Origin: Pseudomonadota bacterium
GTDB lineage: Bacteria > Desulfobacterota > Desulfobulbia > Desulfobulbales > SURF-16
DNA length: 64,000 bases
Assembly: GCA_018816555.1 (NCBI GenBank)
Contig: JAHIVT010000091.1
Location: 70,484-134,483 of the forward strand
Direction: 5' to 3'
In this document: positions 37,949 through 50,964 of the stretch, in pieces
Numbering within the stretch: position 1 is the first letter of the stretch
Layout of the letters: each line of letters begins with the position of its first letter
Translations under genes and position numbers: made by a program
The notes under the pieces: model-generated
Database searches by the model: none
The model's input: only the letters and a program-made list of their open reading frames with translations
Told to the model about the DNA's origin: nothing

Positions 37949-39094
37949 TCATGTCAGCCTGTTTCCGCAGTGGTTACAGAATGTGGCCTGGGGCAGATTT
38001 TCCGTCCGGCATCCGGGACATATCAATGCTGTCGGCTTCTCGCCGGCCGGGTGACCGCAACGGGAGCAGAATAGGGCATTGGGCGCAAGATTTTTGCCGC
38101 AGTTGGCACACTGGGCCATGATGACCTGCTGATGCCCGCAATAAGGGCAAAAACGCGCATCAGCGGGAATGCTGTTTTGACAGTCGGGACAGAGCACCTC
38201 AGGTGATGGAGACACGGCACCGGCAACCGGGGCGTTGGGCGGAAAGTTCTGCTGACGAAATCCTGCAAACATGGCGGGCATCATCATTCCCATGCCGAGG
38301 CCAAGGCCGGCACCGGCTTCGCCACCGGACTCCGCGGCCTTTTCCATGGCCATGGCCGCCTTCATGGTGACAAATTTATCCATGTCCTGGATCACCGACA
38401 ACCGGCTTCTATCATCAATTGCCGCCTGCACATCATCCGGCGGGGTGATGGAGGTGATAAAAAGGGCGTCAAGCTCAAGGCCGAAGCGGGAAAAATCCTG
38501 TTTCAGCCTTTTTTTCAAGCCATCGGCCAGTTCATCAAAACGTCCGGGCAGGTTGAGCAGGGTATCAAGCTCTTCACCAAGAAAATCGTTAAACCTCGAA
38601 ACGATAACCCGCTTGAGATATTCCTCAATTTCCTCAGTGGTAAATTTTCCCATGGTACCGGCCATGGTGTTGATAAAGAGAACAGGCTGAATAATGCGGA
38701 TATTAAAGACCCCATGGGCCCGCAGTCGCACCAGCCCCAGCTCATTATCCCGAAAGGCCACCGGGTTTGTGGTTCCCCATTTGAGATTTGGAAAGACCTT
38801 GAGATTGGCAAAATAAACCTCGGCGCGCAGAGGGCTGGTCATCCCCCAGGGTAAGGCCAGTATTTTGGTCAGCAGAGGTATATTGCCGGTGGTAAGGGTG
38901 TGACGCCCCGGCCCGAATGGATCACAGGCCTTGCCCTTGTAGAAAAGGACCGCGGCCTGACTTTCACGCACTATGAGCTGCGCCCCGTATTTGATTTCGC
39001 CTGATCCGGATTCAGGTATACGGCAAAGCATCTGCTGGCCCGTTGCATCAAGCCATTCGATAACCTCGAGAAAAAAAGTATTGTTTGTTCCCAT
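37949..39094 (-). CDS. SPFH/band-7 domain protein with C-terminal triple Zn-ribbon (COG4260, YdjI-like)
   Basis: N-terminus FLEVIEW...GAQLIVRESQAAVLFYKGK is typical of YdjI/virion-core-like SPFH proteins. The C-terminus has CPDC..CPYC, CANC..CSRC and CPGC..CNHC. ATG 39094 is preceded by GGAGGA. Confidence 0.85.
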   Translation of the reverse strand: MGTNNTFFLEVIEWLDATGQQMLCRIPESGSGEIKYGAQLIVRESQAAVLFYKGKACDPFGPGRHTLTTGNIPLLTKILALPWGMTSPLRAEVYFANLKVFPNLKWGTTNPVAFRDNELGLVRLRAHGVFNIRIIQPVLFINTMAGTMGKFTTEEIEEYLKRVIVSRFNDFLGEELDTLLNLPGRFDELADGLKKRLKQDFSRFGLELDALFITSITPPDDVQAAIDDRSRLSVIQDMDKFVTMKAAMAMEKAAESGGEAGAGLGLGMGMMMPAMFAGFRQQNFPPNAPVAGAVSPSPEVLCPDCQNSIPADARFCPYCGHQQVIMAQCANCGKNLAPNALFCSRCGHPAGEKPTALICPGCRTENLPQATFCNHCGNRLT

Positions 39095-39168
39095 GTGTCC
39101 TCCCTTTTTTAATGTACCTAAAAAGGGTACAACGGGACGGCAGAGCAAAACAAACTTTTTTTACTTCT

Positions 39169-41094: not shown

Positions 41095-42141
41095 ATGAAA
41101 CAGAAAACTGTGCAGAAAGCACCAGCCAATTATGTGGGCAGGATTCTTTTCGGCAATTTCAGTGACGCCATCAAGGAAAGGGTCCAGTCGATTATTGTCG
41201 CCTCAGAGAATATGGAACAGTGCGGCTACCCGCTCATGCCCTATCTGGCCGCCTGGAATGAGGGCGAAAACATTATCTGGTATGAATACACGGGCAAGCG
41301 GTTTATAGAACTGCTTGGTTGTACCAGTATCAATGTTTCCAGGGTATTCCGCGAAGCCATCCTCGACCGACGCGTTTATCGCTACACGGACCCGGCAGGC
41401 TATGATGTGGAAGAAGAAATTCTCACCCGGCAGCAGCTGTCAGGCAAGAGGATCGACCTGCGGGAAGAGGTCAAGAAAACAGGGCAGGTGGAGGCGGTGT
41501 ACCAGGTCGGCCTGCCCGGCGGCAGGGTCATCTGGCTCAAGGATCAGGGACGCATTGAGACATTTCCCCAGGATAAAATCTCTCTTTCCCTGGGCTGCCT
41601 CACCGATGTCACCAAGGAGATGGAACAGAAGGATCTGCTGGAAAAGATCGGCTATTTTGATGAACTGACCGGCCTGCCCCAGCGAAAGATCATGGAGCGG
41701 ATTCTGGAGGTAAAAATCGGCGAGCGGGAACGCGGCCATATCAAGGATTTTTCCTTTCTCATGATCGATATCGATTTTTTTAAATCGGTCAACGATATCC
41801 ATGGCCATCTGGCCGGTGATTTCATCCTGGAGGAATTGGCCTCGGTTATGCTCGCCACCAAACGCAAAGAGGATGACGTGGGCAGGTATGGCGGTGAGGA
41901 ATTTTACGGCATCTGCCAGGGTGCGGTGAAAAGCGGGAAGGATTTTGCCGAGCGCTTGCGGTTAAAGATCGCCGACCATCACTTTAACTATCAGGGTGAA
42001 AAAATTTCCATCACCATCTCCATCGGCGTGGCAGCGGCCGGCGAATTGGCCTCCCTGAATATGACGGACCTGCTGGAGCTTGCTGATAAGCGTTTATACA
42101 AGGCCAAGCAGCAGGGCAGAAACAGGGTGGTGGGAGAGTGA
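41095..42141 (+). CDS. diguanylate cyclase (GGDEF) with uncharacterised N-terminal sensor domain
   Basis: C-terminal GGDEF domain with GGEEF and an upstream RxxD-like region. Confidence 0.85.
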   Translation: MKQKTVQKAPANYVGRILFGNFSDAIKERVQSIIVASENMEQCGYPLMPYLAAWNEGENIIWYEYTGKRFIELLGCTSINVSRVFREAILDRRVYRYTDPAGYDVEEEILTRQQLSGKRIDLREEVKKTGQVEAVYQVGLPGGRVIWLKDQGRIETFPQDKISLSLGCLTDVTKEMEQKDLLEKIGYFDELTGLPQRKIMERILEVKIGERERGHIKDFSFLMIDIDFFKSVNDIHGHLAGDFILEELASVMLATKRKEDDVGRYGGEEFYGICQGAVKSGKDFAERLRLKIADHHFNYQGEKISITISIGVAAAGELASLNMTDLLELADKRLYKAKQQGRNRVVGE

Positions 42142-42175: not shown

Positions 42176-42220
42176 GAATCAATCCGCAATCCGCGATCCC
42201 AAATCCGCAATCCAAGTCAG
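42176..42220. repeat. short tandem array of 7-bp units (AATCCGC-type) between convergent genes
   Basis: AATCCGC AATCCGC GATCCCA AATCCGC AATCCAA (42181-42215) plus partial units at both ends. It abuts the stop codon (42217-42219) of the 700-aa gene. Confidence 0.6.
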
Positions 42221-44319
42221 CTCTCGTCCTTCATCTGCCAGACCGTCCAGATTATTGCCAGGAAAGGGGCCAGGAAGAAAGCCGAAATCAGCCAGCTTTT
42301 TTTCTGCAGGAGTGGATCGCTGAGAATGTTGTGCAGTGACACATAGGAGGTGTTGCTCAGCAGGAAGGGCAATACCATGAAAATAACAAAACCGGCGGCA
42401 AGCACCGAAAGTTCGGCAAGTATCACCTTTTTGACAAAGATCTTCACGCCGTTTAGCAGCAGTCTGATCCAGATCATTTTGCCCTGCATTTCCTGCATGG
42501 AGGAGAGTGATATTTCCACCTGATCAAGCAGATTGACGGCTGCCCGGTACTCCTGGCCCTGCTGTCTGGCAATCAGACCCCGGGTCTCATTAAGTGAGTT
42601 GACTGTCGAGAGAAGCGACTGCTGGAAGGCGTTAAAGAAGTTCTTGTATTCATAATGCTGCCAGAAGTCCTGGTATTGTTTCAGTTTGCTTTCGAGTTCC
42701 TTTTTTCTGGCCTCAAGTTCTTCGATTTTGGTTTTTCGTATCCGCTGACAGCCGTAGGCGTGCCCTTTTGCCCGTTCCAGAACGTCAAGCAGATCATAAT
42801 AGGTCTCCTTCTGGTACTGTTTGCGTAGCTCGTTCAGCGCCCGGCTGTTTTCCTCAAGAAAGGGTTCCTGTTCATCAAACCAGTATCTGAGTTCAACAGA
42901 TTCCGCTTCTGCCATGGCCATGTTTTTTGCCGCTTCCTGGCGCTGATACTGCATCTGTTCAATGGCGAGATCATTGACCAGTCCCTGCACCGGCAGCAGC
43001 AGGGGGTCCATGAGGGCGGTCATGAAAATTTCTTTCTGTCCCAGCATGAGGACGCGCAACCGTTTGAGGTCCCCTTCATCAAAACCGTAGTGGACATTGT
43101 GCTGTATTTTGCGGTACTGACACTCCAGGGTATCTGCATTGATTTTGATGGCCTGGTTGACGGCCTCTTTCGCCTTCCAGAAATCATTATGTAGTTCGTA
43201 GTAGCGGGAAAGGAGCAAATGGCTGTAGATGCGCTCTTTTTCCTGGGAGGCGATGTTTTTCGCCCTTTCCAGATAATGGCCCATATCCTTGGCCCGCCCC
43301 AGTTCCAAGGCCCAGAAGGCCAGACCCACGGTGGCATAGAACTGTTTCCCTTCCCTTTTTTTGCTTTCCCGGGTGAGCAGTTCCTCAGCCTGGGCGAACT
43401 GGCCGACCCGCAGACAATCAAGACCTAAATGGAGATTGCGGCTGTCAATGTTGATTTTGTCCGTACTGTCCTGTCCCTCCCACTTGGTGTTGAGACAGAA
43501 GGCGGTGTTGGCCAGAAAGCGGAGCTGATACATACGGTTGAGGTCAAGATAGGCGACAAAAATCAGCAGTTCCTTATCCTGCCTGAGCTGGGCCGGTTTG
43601 ATACCCGCTGCGCACTTGTTGCTGCAGGCGGAATAATCAGGGAATATTTTTTTGTAGAGGGAGTTCAGTTCTTCAAATGGCAGGTAGCCGATATGCTCCA
43701 TGCCCCGGATTTTCATATTGATGAACTTGCTGGGACAATTTGCCGGAGTATGGCTGGTCATGCCGCAGTAAAAGCATTCCTTGAGTTTGCCATGCACGGG
43801 CAGACTGCGGTAGGAGATAAGTTCCACCTTGCGCAGCGTGGCCGTGCCGGAAATAACCATCTGGAAAAAGCCGCTGCCTTCATCTTCAAATCTGTGTTCC
43901 GGAAGCTCACGACCGGCTGTCAGCTCCTTCCAGTTTCGCATCAGGGAACGGGTTAGATAGATGGTCTCCTGCTGCAGCATATCCCACTCGCTGGCGGATG
44001 TTTGCTGTATCTGGGGCAGGGCGTCTTCTTTTTCAAGGAGGTGGATAACCGTCTGCACCGGCAGTGCGCCTTGGCTTTCCTGCCAGCCGTGCTCCACCTT
44101 GACCGACTCCAGACCCTCAAGCAGGGAGATGAGGGCCAGGAAAGGATTGGGAAAGGTGAAGAGCAGCAGTTCGTCACTGCTCTCCGGCTGTTCAAATCCT
44201 GATTTGGCCAGTATCTGCCGGACGGCGTCGATAAGGGGAAGCCACCTGCTGCCCAGAATTTTCCCGCCCTGATAGCTCAGGGTGCGGATGGCCAAGAGGA
44301 TGGTGTTGTTTTTTTTCAT
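42217..44319 (-). CDS. 700-aa multidomain protein: N-terminal alpha/beta domain, CCHC zinc knuckle, TPR-like and coiled-coil regions, C-terminal TM helices
   Basis: Exact CX2CX4HX4C knuckle CFYCGMTSHTPANC (codons 182-195, nt 43735-43776). TPR-like helices occupy ~aa 300-400, a long coiled coil ~aa 430-600, and two or three hydrophobic helices the C-terminus. Confidence 0.7.
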   Translation of the reverse strand: MKKNNTILLAIRTLSYQGGKILGSRWLPLIDAVRQILAKSGFEQPESSDELLLFTFPNPFLALISLLEGLESVKVEHGWQESQGALPVQTVIHLLEKEDALPQIQQTSASEWDMLQQETIYLTRSLMRNWKELTAGRELPEHRFEDEGSGFFQMVISGTATLRKVELISYRSLPVHGKLKECFYCGMTSHTPANCPSKFINMKIRGMEHIGYLPFEELNSLYKKIFPDYSACSNKCAAGIKPAQLRQDKELLIFVAYLDLNRMYQLRFLANTAFCLNTKWEGQDSTDKINIDSRNLHLGLDCLRVGQFAQAEELLTRESKKREGKQFYATVGLAFWALELGRAKDMGHYLERAKNIASQEKERIYSHLLLSRYYELHNDFWKAKEAVNQAIKINADTLECQYRKIQHNVHYGFDEGDLKRLRVLMLGQKEIFMTALMDPLLLPVQGLVNDLAIEQMQYQRQEAAKNMAMAEAESVELRYWFDEQEPFLEENSRALNELRKQYQKETYYDLLDVLERAKGHAYGCQRIRKTKIEELEARKKELESKLKQYQDFWQHYEYKNFFNAFQQSLLSTVNSLNETRGLIARQQGQEYRAAVNLLDQVEISLSSMQEMQGKMIWIRLLLNGVKIFVKKVILAELSVLAAGFVIFMVLPFLLSNTSYVSLHNILSDPLLQKKSWLISAFFLAPFLAIIWTVWQMKDES

Positions 44320-44331
44320 ACGGCGGCAGGC

Positions 44332-45510
44332 TTACAGGCACTTATCAAGAATTTTTTTTGCTTCACGGTTTTCCGGATAAAGGCGGTGGGCGATGGAGGC
44401 CCATTTGTCGGCCCGGACAAGCATGTCCATGGAAAGAAAGGCCTGGGCCAGGCTGAGCAGCAGATCAAGATCCTCGCCATACTTGCTTGCCGCTTTTTCA
44501 AGATGCAGAATCGCCTCATTATATGTCCCGTTCTTTTGCAGGGCAATGCCCAGCATCTTATTGATATGCAGATTGTCGGAGTGATCCTTGAGAATGGTTC
44601 GGTAACATTTGATGGCCAGCACGAAGAGCCCCTGATCCATTGCTAGTTCGGCAATTTCTTCCTGGATATCGGCGTCACCTTCATTGTTTTTCAGAATGAG
44701 CCGCAAAACCTTCTCCACTTCCGTGCTGTTGTCTTTTTTGGCCAGCAGGCGGGCAAATTTAATGGCCCGATCGGAATGGCGGGGGCTTATTTCCATGGCC
44801 TGGGCAAAATAACCGGTGGCTTTATCCATTTGCCCCTGGCGGTAGAAGATCTGGCCCAGATAATGATAGGATGTCACATCCAGCCGGTTGATTTCAATAG
44901 CTTTCTGAAAACATTTCAGCGACTTGGGCATGTCATTGACCTTGAGCATCAGGCGGCCCAGTTCCCTGAAGGGGCGTGAGGACCTGGGGTTGGCGGCTGA
45001 GGCCTTTTTCGCCTCTTCAATAGCGCCGGGAATATCCCCTTGTTCCTCCAGGTCGCGGGCCTGCAGCAGGTGCAGGGTCAGCGGATCGGGATTATGGGCT
45101 TTGGCCAGCAGTTCATCTATTTTGTGCTCCAGCGAGGCGGTGACAAACGGTTTGGTCAGATAGGCATCCACATCGTGTTCGGCTGCCTCGGCCACGACTT
45201 CCTTGTTGGCCTCCGCCGTGATCATCAGAAAGGGGATATCACGTAATTTTTTATGGGAGCGGATGCGGCTCAGCAGCTCTGTGCCCTTCATGAAGGGCAT
45301 GGCATAATCGGCGATGATAAAGTCGATTTTTTTTGCCTCGTTGGATGTGAGAAATTTCCAGGCTTCCCTGCCGTTGGGCGCTTCAAAGAGCTCCTTGCCG
45401 TAGTTGATGAGTTTCAGCATGGCGCGGACCGAGCGGCGCATATTGTCCTGATCATCGACGATGAGAAAATTCATGAGGCGCGGGGAGAGTTTTTCGTTTT
45501 CAGCAGACAT
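44332..45510 (-). CDS. response regulator receiver + TPR repeat protein
   Basis: REC domain (FLIVDDQDNMR...DFIIADYAMPFMKG...KP) followed by about 6 TPR repeats. Confidence 0.85.
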   Translation of the reverse strand: MSAENEKLSPRLMNFLIVDDQDNMRRSVRAMLKLINYGKELFEAPNGREAWKFLTSNEAKKIDFIIADYAMPFMKGTELLSRIRSHKKLRDIPFLMITAEANKEVVAEAAEHDVDAYLTKPFVTASLEHKIDELLAKAHNPDPLTLHLLQARDLEEQGDIPGAIEEAKKASAANPRSSRPFRELGRLMLKVNDMPKSLKCFQKAIEINRLDVTSYHYLGQIFYRQGQMDKATGYFAQAMEISPRHSDRAIKFARLLAKKDNSTEVEKVLRLILKNNEGDADIQEEIAELAMDQGLFVLAIKCYRTILKDHSDNLHINKMLGIALQKNGTYNEAILHLEKAASKYGEDLDLLLSLAQAFLSMDMLVRADKWASIAHRLYPENREAKKILDKCL

Positions 45511-45521
45511 GGCAAGACCCC

Positions 45522-46781
45522 TTATTTGATGGGAAGTTTGAAGAAAAAACGGCTGCCTTTCCCTTCAGCGCTTTGCACCCCGATCCTGCCGTTGTGCAGT
45601 TCCACCGCCAGTTTACAGAAGTGCAGGCCCAGACCGGTGCCGACCAGGGCATTCTGTTTACTGGAAATTCTGGCATATTTGTCAAAAATATATTCCTGTT
45701 GGGCCGGCGGAATTCCCGGCCCCTGGTCCTGCACAAAAAACTCGATATGGTTCTTGCCAACCATATTGAAGCCCACGGTAATTGCAGAGTCCGGATACGT
45801 ATAGCTCAGACTGTTGGTCAGCAGGTTCTGCAGCACCCGCAGCATAAGGGTTCGGTCAACCGTGATCTTGGGACAGTCCGGGGCGGTCTCCTGCCGCAGC
45901 AAGTCAATGCCCTTGATGCGGGCCAGCCCTTTGATGCTGGAGATCGCCTCGCCAACCAGGCTGAGGCAATCGGTTTCTTCATAGAGAAGCTGCTGTTTGC
46001 CGTCGGCAATCATGTCCGTGGTAACCAGGTTGGCAACCATGCGCACGGCGCGGTCGCAGCCCAGCTGGGCGGCTTCCAGAAATTCTTTCTGTTCTCCGCT
46101 GATGCTGTAGGAGAGGATGTCGAGATTGGCCACCACTTCGGAAAGCGGGGTTTTCAGGTCGTGCATCAGCATGCGGTTGAGGTAGGAGCGCATCTCTTCC
46201 TGATGCCGCAGCTCGCTGTTGCGTTTTTTGAGGGTATTGCGCTGGGCGCTGATTTTCTTGTGCAGGGTTTCCTGGATAAAGGTCCAGAGGATAAAGCTGC
46301 TGAAATAGAGCAGATAGCTGATGTCGTCTTTTAATAGATCCTTGCCCCCGCTTTTGTCGCTCGCATTGATTACGCCGATTACCTGGTCCTTATGGATGAC
46401 AGGGGCGGAGAGCAGGGAGTCCTTTTTGTAGATTCCTTCCCTTTTAGCAAATCTTTTGTCCTGGGAAATGTCCGTGATGAAAAGTGGTTTGGCATGTCTG
46501 ACAACCCAGGCGGCCACCGAATCATCGGTGAGTGTCTGTTTGTGGCCGATAATTTCCGGGCGGCTGGCTGCCCGGACCACCAGCTTGTTTTTTTCAAGCA
46601 CCATCAGTGATCCCTGCTCCACGCCAAGATAATCAAGCACCACCTGCAGCACCCTGTCCATCATGCTGCTGTGGGTCAGTTTCCTGGCATTCATCACATC
46701 GGTGATCTGAAACAGGCTTTTCAGCAGTCGATTGCACTGTTGAGGATCAGGCTTGACTTCGTTCCATTGTTTTTTTTCCAT
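45522..46781 (-). CDS. GAF-domain sensor histidine kinase
   Basis: GAF region, then an H-box (MLMHDLKTPLS) and N/G1/G2 boxes (NLLTNSLSY, DQGPGIP, GTGLGL). ATG 46781 was chosen; the ORF track starts at 46823. Confidence 0.85.
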   Translation of the reverse strand: MEKKQWNEVKPDPQQCNRLLKSLFQITDVMNARKLTHSSMMDRVLQVVLDYLGVEQGSLMVLEKNKLVVRAASRPEIIGHKQTLTDDSVAAWVVRHAKPLFITDISQDKRFAKREGIYKKDSLLSAPVIHKDQVIGVINASDKSGGKDLLKDDISYLLYFSSFILWTFIQETLHKKISAQRNTLKKRNSELRHQEEMRSYLNRMLMHDLKTPLSEVVANLDILSYSISGEQKEFLEAAQLGCDRAVRMVANLVTTDMIADGKQQLLYEETDCLSLVGEAISSIKGLARIKGIDLLRQETAPDCPKITVDRTLMLRVLQNLLTNSLSYTYPDSAITVGFNMVGKNHIEFFVQDQGPGIPPAQQEYIFDKYARISSKQNALVGTGLGLHFCKLAVELHNGRIGVQSAEGKGSRFFFKLPIK

Positions 46782-46958
46782 AGTTAATCCCGAATGAACA
46801 TCTGGATAATCTTTGCAGGGCAAGAAAAAACGCCTGTTTTTTTCAGAGCCCTTGCGGGTATGATTTCGCTGTTTCAGGCCTGCTCGACATCCGGCTCAAT
46901 ATCAGGAGCGGGTCCGGCTCTTATCCGTTGCTGGGGCAGTGGTGTTCAGGAAGAGGGA

Positions 46959-47750
<792 letters not shown>

Positions 47751-47789: not shown

Positions 47790-49340
47790 TTATTCCCACT
47801 CAATGGTGCTCGGCGGTTTGGAGGAGATATCAAACACCACCCGGTTGACCCCGCGGACCTCGTTGATGATGCGGTTGGAAATGCGGCCCAGCAGATCATA
47901 GGGCAGGCGGGACCAGTCGGCGGTCATGGCGTCGACGCTGTCCACCGCGCGCAGGGCGATGACGTGCTCATAGGTGCGCTCATCCCCCATGACTCCCACG
48001 GTCTGGATGGGCAGCAGCACGGCAAAGGACTGCCAGACCTTGCGGTAGTAACCTGATTTTTTCATCTCTTCGAGCACTATGACATCTGCCTGCCGCAGGA
48101 TATGCAGTCTCTCCCGGCTTACTTCGCCCATGATGCGGATACCCAGCCCGGGTCCGGGAAAGGGCTGGCGGTAAATGGCCTCTTCCGGCAGACCGAGCTC
48201 AAGGCCCAGTTCCCGCACCTCGTCTTTGAACAGCTCCCGCAGGGGTTCAATGAGGGCGAGTTTCATGATTTCAGGCAGGCCGCCCACGTTATGGTGGGAT
48301 TTGATCACCGCCGCACCCCGGAAGGAAACACTCTCGATGACGTCGGGGTAGAGGGTGCCCTGGGCCAGGTACTTCACATCACCCAGCTTGCCCGCCTCCT
48401 CTTCAAAAATTTTGATAAAGCCGTAGCCGATGCGTTTTCGTTTTTCTTCTGGGTCAACGATGCCCTCGAGCTGGCCGAGAAAATAGTTTTCAGCGTCGAT
48501 ATCAATGACCTTGAGATGGGTTTTTTCCTGAAAATAACGCATGAGACTTGCCGTCTCGCCGGTGCGCATCAATCCGTTGTTGACGTAAATGCAGGTGAGC
48601 TGCTCACCTATGGCGCGATGGACCAGGGCCGCTGTCACGGAGGAGTCAACCCCGCCGGACAGGGCGCAGATCACCTTGTCCCGGCCCACCTTGTCCCGGA
48701 TGCCCTGCACCGTGGTTTCCACAAAATTATGCATGGTCCAGTTGGGCTCACAGCCGCACAGGCCGAAAATGAAGTTGCGCAGTACATCGGTGCCGATCAG
48801 GGTGTGGGCCACCTCCGGATGGAACTGCACGCCCACCATTTTTTTCCCTTCGTGGCGGATGGCGGCGTGGGGGGAGTGCTCGCTCACCGCCGAGGCGACA
48901 AAGCCTTGAGGCAGCACTTCGATGCGGTCGCCGTGGCTCATCCACACCTGGTATTGGCTGGAGCCGGGCTCAAAACCGGCAAAGAGCCCGCCGGTATATT
49001 TGATCTCCAGATCCGACTTGCCGAACTCACGTTTCACCGCCCGTTCCACCTTGCCGCCCAGCTGCTGGGTCATGAGCTGGGCGCCGTAGCAGATACCGAG
49101 CACGGGGATGTCAAGGTCGAAGAGACCCGGATCGCTTAAAGGCGCGTCCTCGTCATACACACTGGCCGGGCCGCCGGAAAGTACAATGCCTTTGGGCTGC
49201 ATCTCCTTGATTTTCACAAGAGACAGGGTGTAGGGGTGGATTTCACTGTAGACCTTCTGCTCGCGGATGCGCCGGGCAATGAGCTGGGTGGTCTGGGAAC
49301 CGAAATCAAGTATGAGTATTTTTTCACTGTGAATATTCAT
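47790..49340 (-). CDS. guaA: GMP synthase (glutamine-hydrolysing)
   Basis: [17 protein letters not shown], the GATase triad region and the ATP-PPase SGGVDSS motif. ATG 49340 was chosen; the ORF track starts at 49445. Confidence 0.95.
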
Positions 49341-49500
49341 GATGTATGATCCGTGCTGATGAAGGAGTGGAGGAAATAAAAATGTAACAATGTGCCCGCA
49401 AGCACCCCATGAAGGGTCCTCGGCAATGCTCTTGCTGCCAGGCAAAGGGCGCAGGCCGTGAAATAAGAGGTCACCCGCCGCGCCTGCAGACCGTATTCGC

Positions 49501-50964
49501 TTAACTCATCCGGTAATTGGGAGCTTCCTTGGTTATAATCACGTCATGCACATGGCTCTCTTTCAAGCCGGCCGGGCTGATACGGACAAATTTTGCCTTT
49601 TTCTGCAGATCCTTGATGTCGCAGGCGCCCAGGTAGCCCATGCCGGAGCGCAACCCGCCGATCAGCTGGTAAATGGTATCGCAGATGGGGCCGCGGTAGG
49701 GAACTTTACCCTCAATGCCTTCGGGCACCAGTTTGGCCGGAGACTCGATCTCATCCTGGAAATAGCGGTCACTGCTGCCTCTTTTCATGGCACCCAGGGA
49801 ACCCATGCCCCGGTATCCTTTATAGGTGCGGCCCTGGTAGAGAAAAGTTTCACCCGGCGTCTCATCGCAGCCGGCAAAAAGACTGCCGATCATGATGACA
49901 TCCGCCCCAATGCCGATGGCCTTGGTGACATCGCCGGAGTGCTTGATGCCGCCGTCGCCGATCACCGGAATACCATATTTTTCCGCCGCCTTTTTGCAGT
50001 TGTAAATGGCGGTGAGCTGGGGCACGCCGACACCCGCCACGATACGGGTGGTGCAGATTGAGCCGGGGCCGACTCCTACCTTGATACAGTCGGCGCCGGC
50101 CTTGATCAGCGCCTCGGCCGCCTCGGCGGTGGCAATATTGCCGGCAATGATCTGTACATCCGGAAAGGAGGCTTTGATGTCCTGCAGTTTGGTCAGCACA
50201 TTTTTTGAATGGCCATGGGCGGAATCGAGCACGAACACATCGACCTCCGCCTTGGCCAGTTTTTCCACATCCTCCAGGGTGGTGAGCACCCCGATGGCGG
50301 CTCCTACCCGCAGACGGCCAAGGGAATCCTTGGCGGAAAGAGGGTATTTTCTGATCTTTTCCAGGTCCTTGATGGTGATGAGCCCCTGCAGATCTCCGCT
50401 GTCATTGACCACCAGCAGTTTTTCGATACGGTGTTCATGGAGAAGCGCCTTGGACTGCTCCAGGGTGATGCCCACCCTGGCGGTAACCAGATTCTTGCTG
50501 GTCATCACCTCCTTGACCCGCAGGTCGAGGTCTGAGACAAAGCGCAGATCGCGGTTGGTGACAATGCCGATCAGTTTTTTCCCCTGCAGGACCGGCACCC
50601 CGGAAATCCGGTAATTCTGCATGATCTCCTTCACCTCGCCCACGGTCTGATCCTCCACCACCGTAACCGGGTCGACGATCATGCCGGATTCAGATTTTTT
50701 CACCTTTTTCACCTGCAGCACCTGCTCGTCAATGGACATGTTCTTGTGGATGATGCCGATGCCGCCCTCTCTGGCCATGGCAATGGCGGCACGGTGCTCG
50801 GTGACCGTGTCCATGGCGGCGCTGATCAGAGGAATATTTAAGGTGACATGTTGCGTCAGACTGGTGGTAAGGTTGACCTCGCTGGGAAGAACCTCAGAGG
50901 CTTGGGGCACCAGGAGGAGATCATCAAAGGTATAGGCGTATTCAATTGGATTATTGGCAAACAT
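49501..50964 (-). CDS. guaB: IMP dehydrogenase
   Basis: GGIGIIHKN, a CBS pair, the GPGSICTTR catalytic loop and GGIKHSGD. Confidence 0.95.

Follow-up and report, generated by a model that had tools for sequence, protein, structure and literature searches.

A bacterial protein family with an invariant retroviral-type zinc knuckle between a predicted pseudo-cyclase domain and a TPR-like array, encoded in one clade next to a two-component pair

Three open reading frames lie in series on the minus strand of the 64-kb window analyzed here (the whole stretch of DNA under study, in which all coordinates below are positions and minus-strand genes are marked (-)), and they encode a GAF histidine kinase, a REC-TPR response regulator, and a protein of 700 amino acids (aa). 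This third protein belongs to an undescribed family of considerable size from sulfur-cycling bacteria, with 466 representatives that are all annotated as hypothetical or only generically, and the signature of the family is an invariant zinc knuckle of the retroviral type, preceded by a cyclase-type domain and followed by TPR-like repeats, which is unexpected in bacteria. Judged by its sequence, the cyclase-type domain of the window protein has kept the fold and lost the catalytic set, and larger relatives carry a genuine cyclase domain in front of the same chassis. We give an even chance to the reading that the 700-aa protein is a non-enzymatic, tail-anchored scaffold with a head made of pseudo-cyclase and knuckle, which would act as a phosphorylation-controlled partner of the REC-TPR regulator.

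The kinase gene occupies 45522..46781 (-) and yields 419 aa from the ATG used by gene callers and homologues; a TTG at 46823 is also open. Its stop codon is followed after 11 nt by the ATG of the regulator gene (44332..45510 (-), 392 aa), and 12 nt separate the regulator's stop codon from the ATG of the gene for the knuckle protein (42217..44319 (-), stop codon included). Both gaps were read from the DNA, and together with the open reading frames they bear out the minus-strand array of three genes, 11 to 12 nt apart, that a preliminary description of this DNA had proposed.

Architecture of the 700-aa protein

An AlphaFold2 model of the 700-aa protein was built on 36 homologues (predicted local distance difference test [pLDDT], 89; predicted TM score [pTM], 0.75). 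At the N terminus, where an alpha/beta domain had been noted from the sequence, remote-homology and structure comparisons with hhalign and Foldseek confirm such a domain and identify it as a degenerate class III nucleotidyl-cyclase homology domain (pseudo-CHD; aa 1-175, 43795..44319 (-)). Residues 1-156 are modelled as a beta-alpha-beta-beta-alpha-beta domain, and the top Foldseek match in the PDB is the adenylyl cyclase Ma1120 (4wp3; E value, 7e-3; TMt, 0.53; 167 columns), the other PDB matches of the 700-aa model being human soluble adenylyl cyclase (sAC) and, for the remainder, TPR proteins. When the N-terminal domain of 168 short forms was compared by hhalign with the catalytic domain of 59 long forms (see below), the two aligned over 138 columns with a probability of 98.6% and an E value of 8e-16. 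In this alignment, the metal-binding Asp of the KxxGD motif falls on the Leu of a conserved ELLLF strand (KtiGD versus s-s-d-E-L-L), and the positions of the GxxVNxxAK motif, with the transition-state Asn/Arg (GxxVNxAxR), and of the substrate-specifying Lys fall on residues that are not conserved in the pseudo-CHD. Strand 1 reads ILLAIRT and has no conserved acidic residue, the Asp of FxDI being lost (alignment A1, 36 sequences, down to 36% identity). A Pfam scan of residues 1-173 found no family at E<=10, and PF00211 (Guanylate_cyc) was not matched. Since residues 1-175 keep the fold and have lost the catalytic residues, we regard them as a pseudo-enzyme domain, that is, a class III cyclase domain that is predicted from its sequence to be catalytically dead.

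The zinc knuckle, CFYCGMTSHTPANC, lies at aa 182-195 (43735..43776 (-)), and translation of the DNA reproduces the exact retroviral-type CX2CX4HX4C spacing reported earlier for these nucleotides. The motif is not a product of chance: given the protein's own composition, 3.1e-5 occurrences are expected per protein, and 5 of 200,000 shuffles contained one. C182, Y184, C185, H190, C195, P196, and K198 are invariant in alignment A1, and the four Cys/His ligands and Y184 are still invariant after relatives of 17-25% identity have been added (alignment A2, 23 sequences). Of 295 family proteins, 282 have exactly one knuckle motif; the others are 13 fragments, at least 11 of which are too short to reach the knuckle. 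The conservation of the Cys/His residues in homologues, on which the preliminary description had staked its case, is therefore complete. The family consensus, G-x3-[EP]-C-[FY]-Y-C-G-x3-H-x-P-x2-C-P-S-K-x-L, has aromatic residues in the two positions behind the first Cys (Cys+1 and Cys+2), a Gly behind the second Cys, and a Pro behind the last, but not the Gly that stands before the His in canonical knuckles. Retroviral-type zinc knuckles are regarded as essentially eukaryotic and retroelement-borne, and the one described here probably binds Zn.

In the model, the knuckle is an irregular segment between folded domains (pLDDT, ~95), and both the model and the hydropathy profile fit the order described beforehand, with the knuckle between the alpha/beta domain and TPR-like repeats and with transmembrane (TM) helices at the C terminus. 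The knuckle is followed by a helical region (aa 196-293, 43441..43734 (-); modelled helices at 196-290, including 215-274), which in alignment A1 carries the invariant motifs CPSK and YQ-x-RFL (Q265, R267, F268, and L269). Behind it lies the TPR-like array (aa 294-437, 43009..43440 (-)), modelled as helix pairs and opening with a near-invariant DCLRV motif (D301 and R304). This array is the most conserved long segment, and with the knuckle it makes up the most conserved segments of the family chassis. Pfam TPR_12 matches the protein with an E value of 7e-5 and 23.3 bits, versus a gathering cutoff of 30.1, and Foldseek likens the TPR part to MamA and to designed TPR proteins (E values, 0.01-0.1). 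Apart from this subthreshold TPR signal, the Pfam and NCBIfam matches of the whole protein (Adeno_E4_34, phnC, SctY, and Csm6) were dismissed as noise.

The C-terminal third begins at the invariant pair D438-P439 with long helices that could form a helical bundle or a coiled coil (aa 438-625, 42445..43008 (-)). They are modelled at 439-480, 486-504, 507-555, 563-585, and 588-654, the last running straight into the first TM segment (TM1). The coiled coil of ~170 residues that had been described is thus present insofar as long helices fill 439-654, but the model has five separate helices rather than one continuous coil. The protein ends in a TM hairpin (aa 626-700, 42220..42444 (-)) with TM segments at 632-656 and 675-696 (Kyte-Doolittle windows of >1.6). 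The hairpin is more conserved than a passive anchor needs, with an invariant Glu636 inside TM1 (42412-42414 (-)), the loop motif DP-x2-QK, K673, and an invariant P685. Because there is no signal peptide and some 630 residues precede the hairpin, the most plausible topology is that of a tail-anchored protein whose two ends both lie in the cytoplasm.

The protein family and its cyclase-bearing relatives

A word-indexed search returned 192 homologous clusters from Desulfobulbaceae, Desulfurivibrionaceae, and metagenome-assembled genomes (MAGs) of Thermodesulfobacteriota, nearly all of 697-703 aa and all named “hypothetical.” An exhaustive profile search of 1.84 billion representatives gave 466 hits with E<=1e-3, each standing for a cluster at 50% identity, among which a second size class of 870-925 aa stands out, in which the region homologous to the 700-aa protein starts at about residue 185-215. 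Nine of 10 larger relatives sampled (759-925 aa) match Pfam Guanylate_cyc in the N-terminal extension, with E values of 1e-10 to 5e-24; in the 10th, of 759 aa, only TPR was seen. These long forms are named at source “adenylate/guanylate cyclase domain-containing protein” or “class 3 adenylate cyclase/TPR repeat protein,” and they consist of a genuine cyclase domain followed by the chassis, i.e., pseudo-cyclase, knuckle, helical region, TPR array, long helices, and TM hairpin. FTDI, KxxGD[SAT], and GxxVNxx[AS]K are kept in 45-47 of the 59 long-form catalytic domains, with Lys in place of the usual Arg, and in the model of one long form (P0163, 883 aa; pLDDT, 87) the first domain superposes on Ma1120 and Rv1900c with a TMt of 0.87 and a root mean square deviation (rmsd) of 2.6 Å. 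The best explanation is that the 700-aa protein derives from, or shares its chassis with, membrane-anchored cyclases that bear a real catalytic domain.

About 14 of the 59 long forms have lost at least one catalytic motif in their first cyclase domain (P0186, P0194, P0203, P0206, P0218, P0228, P0230, P0248, P0250, P0257, and others), and to judge from these motifs the loss of catalysis seems to recur in the family. For the long forms we also considered a pseudo-heterodimer of the C1-C2 kind seen in sAC, which the model does not support, tandem superpositions on AC9 and sAC giving an rmsd of 18-19 Å.

By the defining profile tests, the 700-aa protein is a member of neither PF00211 nor PF00098 (zf-CCHC), and neither annotation nor literature places it in an already characterized family; full-text literature searches, aimed at the family itself, at zinc knuckles in bacteria, and at proteins that combine cyclase and knuckle, turned up no relevant paper. 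The earlier statement that no characterized bacterial protein has this architecture accordingly stands as far as annotation and literature go, but it has to be tempered by the long cyclase/TPR relatives, which share the chassis. An anti-phage function was rejected, there being no PADLOC match for the 700-aa protein and the context being core-genome guaBA synteny; the long forms match PADLOC PycC (E values, 1e-7 to 6e-11) through general CHD similarity only.

Linkage to the kinase and regulator and its possible meaning

The two upstream genes have the domains expected of the two-component pair (GAF kinase and REC-TPR regulator) that had been recognized from the sequence, with an intact H-box and receiver and the 11-nt gap between them. 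The kinase comprises a GAF domain (aa 38-157), HisKA (198-253), and HATPase_c (309-418), with Pfam E values of 8e-11 (GAF_2), 7e-7, and 8e-24, respectively; it has no TM segment, and its H-box reads MLMHDLKTPL. In the regulator, a receiver domain (aa 16-131; Response_reg, 7e-22) with intact residues DD19-20, D68, T98, and K120 is joined to an unambiguous TPR array of ~250 aa (TPR_2, 1e-20, among many TPR families), and there is no DNA-binding or enzymatic output domain. Its best NCBIfam matches, CheY and EpsW, are both under the cutoff, and proteins 57-63% identical to it occur in Desulfurivibrio alkaliphilus, D. dismutans, and Thiovibrio sp. JS02. The kinase is thus a predicted cytoplasmic sensor, and the residues of both proteins are predicted to be competent for phosphorelay.

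The genomic context was surveyed by tblastn in a scan of 185,579 species genomes, which yielded 80 loci, all from Desulfobulbia-type genomes (the isolate Hydrosulfovibrio ferrireducens included) except for one 6.6-kb contig binned as an archaeon. The REC-TPR regulator gene lies directly upstream of the knuckle gene and on the same strand in 63 of the 77 loci with enough upstream sequence, the gap between the two measuring 6-256 nt across loci, and the GAF kinase gene precedes the regulator gene in all 56 loci with enough flank. Farther upstream, guaA is present in all 43 loci with at least 5.5 kb of flank, with guaB beyond it wherever the flank reaches, and a gene for an NYN-domain protein stands between guaA and the kinase gene in 21 of these 43. 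In one clade guaA abuts the kinase gene (2-nt gap in L003). Strand, order, and short gaps are kept while the knuckle protein diverges to 35% identity, and meanwhile the downstream genes vary and the NYN gene is present in some loci only. The same block of five genes recurs in the complete genome of Desulfurivibrio alkaliphilus AHT2 (CP001940.1, knuckle gene within 1,812,588-1,825,751), where the orthologue has 703 aa (36% identity) and its knuckle reads CFYCSQTNHEPASCPAK. This survey of phylogeny and neighborhood, which the preliminary description had called for, thus finds the three-gene order kept in most Desulfobulbia loci.

Two loci call for a comment. The archaeal contig (L027, JAIWHJ010000093.1, 6.6 kb), deposited as part of a “Promethearchaeota archaeon” MAG, carries the regulator gene and a knuckle gene (39% identity); being short and of low coverage, it looks like a binning contaminant of Desulfobulbia origin. 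In L016 (CAVSQR010000019.1), tblastn finds guaB, guaA, and the knuckle gene each as two separate pieces, ~90% identical to the window, which suggests frameshift errors of the assembly rather than pseudogenes.

Fourteen loci lack the two-component pair, most of them in one paralogue clade nested within the short-form radiation. These standalone copies (L063 7001-9079 in Hydrosulfovibrio ferrireducens CB1MN, L044, L055, L056, L059, L064, L067, L071, L074, and L081) have unrelated neighbors, such as a methyltransferase and a DUF255 thioredoxin in L063, and several Desulfurivibrionaceae genomes hold both a standalone copy and a copy linked to kinase and regulator. Two long forms have no two-component pair adjoining, and two distant short forms, on short contigs, have none directly upstream. 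Therefore, the linkage is not a property of the whole family: it is real, old within Desulfobulbia, and clade-specific. The coupling to a “dedicated” pair, as it had been called, is upheld by the synteny in 63 of 77 loci, but the adjective fits neither the long forms nor the standalone paralogue nor the two distant short forms.

Across the family, the constant part is the chassis, and the variable part is either the fused cyclase, in long forms, or the adjacent kinase/regulator pair, in Desulfobulbia short forms. The regulator has a TPR output only and therefore must act by binding a protein, and the scaffold, as the only conserved co-operonic candidate, is its favored partner. In the mechanism that we propose, the GAF kinase would sense a cytoplasmic small molecule and phosphorylate the REC-TPR regulator, the TPR output of which would then bind the scaffold and change how a complex near the membrane assembles or works. 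The knuckle, a predicted Zn-stabilized structural or protein-contact element, would fix the pseudo-cyclase head to the helical/TPR body or form a protein contact instead of serving as a free nucleic-acid finger. That a CCHC knuckle can make a protein-protein contact is known from Air2, whose knuckle ZnK5 binds Trf4 (PMC3384339).

Several observations weigh against this proposal. Long forms, the standalone paralogue, and two distant short forms do without the pair, which may thus be an add-on, or its place may be upstream rather than downstream. Comparing linked copies with the standalone paralogue, we found only three trivial positions that are conserved in the linked copies alone, and no docking surface. 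When 41.9-51.3 kb was scanned for promoters and terminators, they were no more numerous than in shuffled sequence, and no usable operon boundary emerged. Finally, two features on which nucleic-acid-binding knuckles rely, an aromatic residue at Cys+1 and a Gly behind the second Cys, are retained in this knuckle.

Signal flow might also be reversed, a reading that we consider unlikely, if less so than those that follow: the scaffold, through the TM hairpin with its Glu636 or through the TPR array, would be a sensor or co-sensor that controls the soluble GAF kinase, and the long forms would give their output through the fused cyclase. The kinase itself lacks any TM or periplasmic domain, the output-like module (cyclase domain or adjacent two-component pair) varies on a constant chassis, and the hairpin with its loop is conserved beyond the needs of an anchor (E636, K673, and P685), all of which would suit such a role. 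However, the kinase already has an input domain in GAF, the periplasmic loop measures only ~20 residues, and in the long forms the cyclase domain lies at the end distal to the membrane, which is not the usual geometry of transmembrane signaling; in addition, reversed flow would leave the TPR output of the regulator without a target.

The preliminary description had suggested a regulated, membrane-anchored effector that possibly binds nucleic acid, which would here mean a knuckle that binds single-stranded RNA or DNA. The retroviral spacing is exact, the aromatics, the Gly after the second Cys, and the Pro after the last Cys are conserved, and when the family profile was run against PDB sequences the only four matches, weak as they are (E values, 0.66-7.5), were all knuckle peptides (RECQL4 2mpj, with an E value of 0.66, and Gag nucleocapsid [NC]). 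The models zf-CCHC_4 and Lin28 zf-CCHC_2 also match the isolated peptide at E values of 0.012-0.025, but with 14.6-16.2 bits versus a cutoff of 27, so that every knuckle-model match falls far below its gathering score. The Pfam profile zf-CCHC (PF00098), proposed as a check, matches neither the whole protein (E<=1) nor the isolated 40-aa knuckle peptide (E<=10), probably because the canonical Gly before the His is missing. Furthermore, the knuckle is single, it is embedded at a pLDDT of ~95 between folded domains, and it has no basic flanking linker, the net charge being +2 for residues 176-200 beside -5 for the adjacent domain; an R/K-R/K pair inside the long-form knuckle has been replaced by T-[NST] in the short forms. 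The RNase-like NYN gene with a weak cold-shock-like tail, found two genes upstream in 21 of 43 loci, would speak for this reading, but it is absent from half of the loci. Nucleic-acid binding is therefore unsupported, and we regard the effector as quite unlikely.

The synteny could also be positional only, the 700-aa protein being independent of a kinase/regulator pair that happens to lie downstream of guaBA. Family members without the pair are common, no residues are specific to the linked copies, and the block is anchored to housekeeping genes, the order of which tends to be stable. Against this, strand, order, and short gaps (6-256 nt, and 11-12 nt here) are kept down to 35% protein identity while the genes farther downstream turn over freely and the NYN gene is now present, now absent, which makes a purely positional arrangement distinctly improbable. 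To yet another reading we allow only a slim chance, namely, that the pseudo-cyclase head and knuckle sense a guanine base, a guanine nucleotide, or an RNA and couple guanine-nucleotide status to a membrane process via the phosphorelay; the aromatics of the knuckle would stack on guanine in the manner of retroviral NC, and a nucleotide would sit in the dead cyclase pocket. It is suggested by the position of guaBA directly upstream, by the GAF kinase, and by a GGDEF gene downstream in some lineages, and, if true, it would be the first bacterial signaling use of a retroviral-type knuckle for ligand recognition. That the N-terminal domain is a working cyclase half pairing in trans like the C1/C2 halves is very improbable: class III cyclases act as dimers, with degenerate partners known in transmembrane adenylyl cyclases (tmAC) and sAC, and the fold search of the long form gave tandem AC9 and sAC matches, but the C2-like residues (specificity Lys/Asp and the Asn/Arg pair) are not conserved, the long-form catalytic domain carries both Asp motifs, Lys, and Asn and so resembles the homodimeric type, the tandem superpositions are poor (rmsd as above), and no CHD-like open reading frame was found elsewhere in the 64-kb window.

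Neighboring genes and comparison with known systems

The conserved upstream anchor of the module is the block 47790..50964, made up of guaA (47790-49340 (-)) and, beyond it, guaB (49501-50964 (-)). The NYN-domain protein between guaA and the kinase (46959..47750 (-), 263 aa; Pfam NYN, 2e-26) is an optional neighbor, the C terminus of which gives a weak cold-shock-like match under the cutoff (Pfam CSD, E value of 5e-3). In eukaryotes, a cold-shock domain paired with CCHC knuckles is typical of Lin28 and of plant cold-shock proteins; here, the cold-shock-like element and the knuckle sit on different proteins. On the other side, convergent to the gene for the 700-aa protein, lies a GGDEF diguanylate cyclase gene (41095..42141 (+); Pfam GGDEF, 5e-35), the product of which has an N-terminal domain of 170 aa without family assignment. 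This gene, too, is an optional neighbor: among close relatives it lies downstream in L009-L018 and L021, and three distant loci (L042, L073, and L083; 51-53% identity) have it there as well. With the GGDEF gene, guaBA, and the GAF kinase, the neighborhood has a guanine-nucleotide flavor.

Farther downstream, the window encodes at 37949-39148 (-) a Band_7/SPFH protein that ends in several CxxC double zinc-ribbon repeats; the Pfam families Band_7, DZR, and Zn_ribbon were matched on the identical copy of this gene in L005. Downstream regions (noted at L001 13382-17278 and L005 19831-22103) are variable among related loci: L001 encodes there a PIN-TPR-GreABC protein of 1298 aa, and on the window's own contig they hold genes for a DDE_3 transposase, a protein with an FGE-sulfatase domain, and a NACHT/STAND protein. 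A search of the whole window for Rfam families and tRNA genes gave no matches.

Taken by itself, the finding opens no long-standing question, and the function of the 700-aa protein is one that we infer. It does provide an evolutionary series, with anchored cyclases that carry a second, degenerate domain at one end and putative pseudo-enzyme scaffolds beside a two-component pair at the other, and thereby what may be a compact bacterial case of a pseudo-enzyme kept for a non-catalytic role. It also provides a candidate partner for an “output-less” REC-TPR regulator, conserved in the cultured Desulfurivibrio alkaliphilus AHT2 and Hydrosulfovibrio ferrireducens. Like CheY-like and other REC-TPR regulators, the window regulator combines an intact receiver with a TPR-only output, and it matches no characterized equivalog.

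Among class III CHD proteins (PF00211), such as Ma1120 of Mycobacterium avium and Rv1900c of M. tuberculosis, the long relatives are bona fide members, and residues 1-156 of the window protein have the same fold and show profile homology to the long-form CHD. In contrast to class III cyclases, however, the window domain does not match PF00211, lacks both metal-binding Asp residues and the Asn/Arg pair, and is followed by a zinc knuckle, an arrangement that is not known to have been reported for any cyclase. Mammalian sAC (ADCY10; C1-C2, NTPase-like, TPR) and mycobacterial CHD-NB-ARC-TPR-LuxR proteins such as Rv0386 resemble the long forms in having cyclase-type domains, in tandem in the long forms, followed by TPR. 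Unlike these proteins, the knuckle family has no STAND/NTPase module and does have the CCHC knuckle, the long helices, and a C-terminal TM hairpin; the modelled tandem domains of the long forms do not superpose on the C1-C2 arrangement, and the window protein has the degenerate domain only.

For the TPR part, structural matches include LapB/YciM of E. coli (TM, TPR, and rubredoxin; 7t6d), PknG of M. tuberculosis (rubredoxin, kinase, and TPR; 2pzi), and MamA. As an analogy only, these proteins resemble the 700-aa protein in combining TPR-type repeats with a small metal module rich in Cys and with a role at the membrane or in assembly; the metal module of LapB and PknG is a rubredoxin and not a knuckle, domain order and membrane topology are different, and outside the TPR repeats the sequences show no homology. 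The knuckle itself has the CX2CX4HX4C spacing and the aromatic, Gly, and Pro positions of zf-CCHC knuckles (PF00098) such as those of HIV-1 NC, Lin28, RECQL4, and Air2, with ligands that are invariant in the family, but it fails the PF00098 profile, has no Gly before the His, occurs singly with non-basic flanks, and is embedded in a bacterial membrane protein. By analogy, its closest functional counterpart may be the protein-contact knuckle ZnK5 of Air2.

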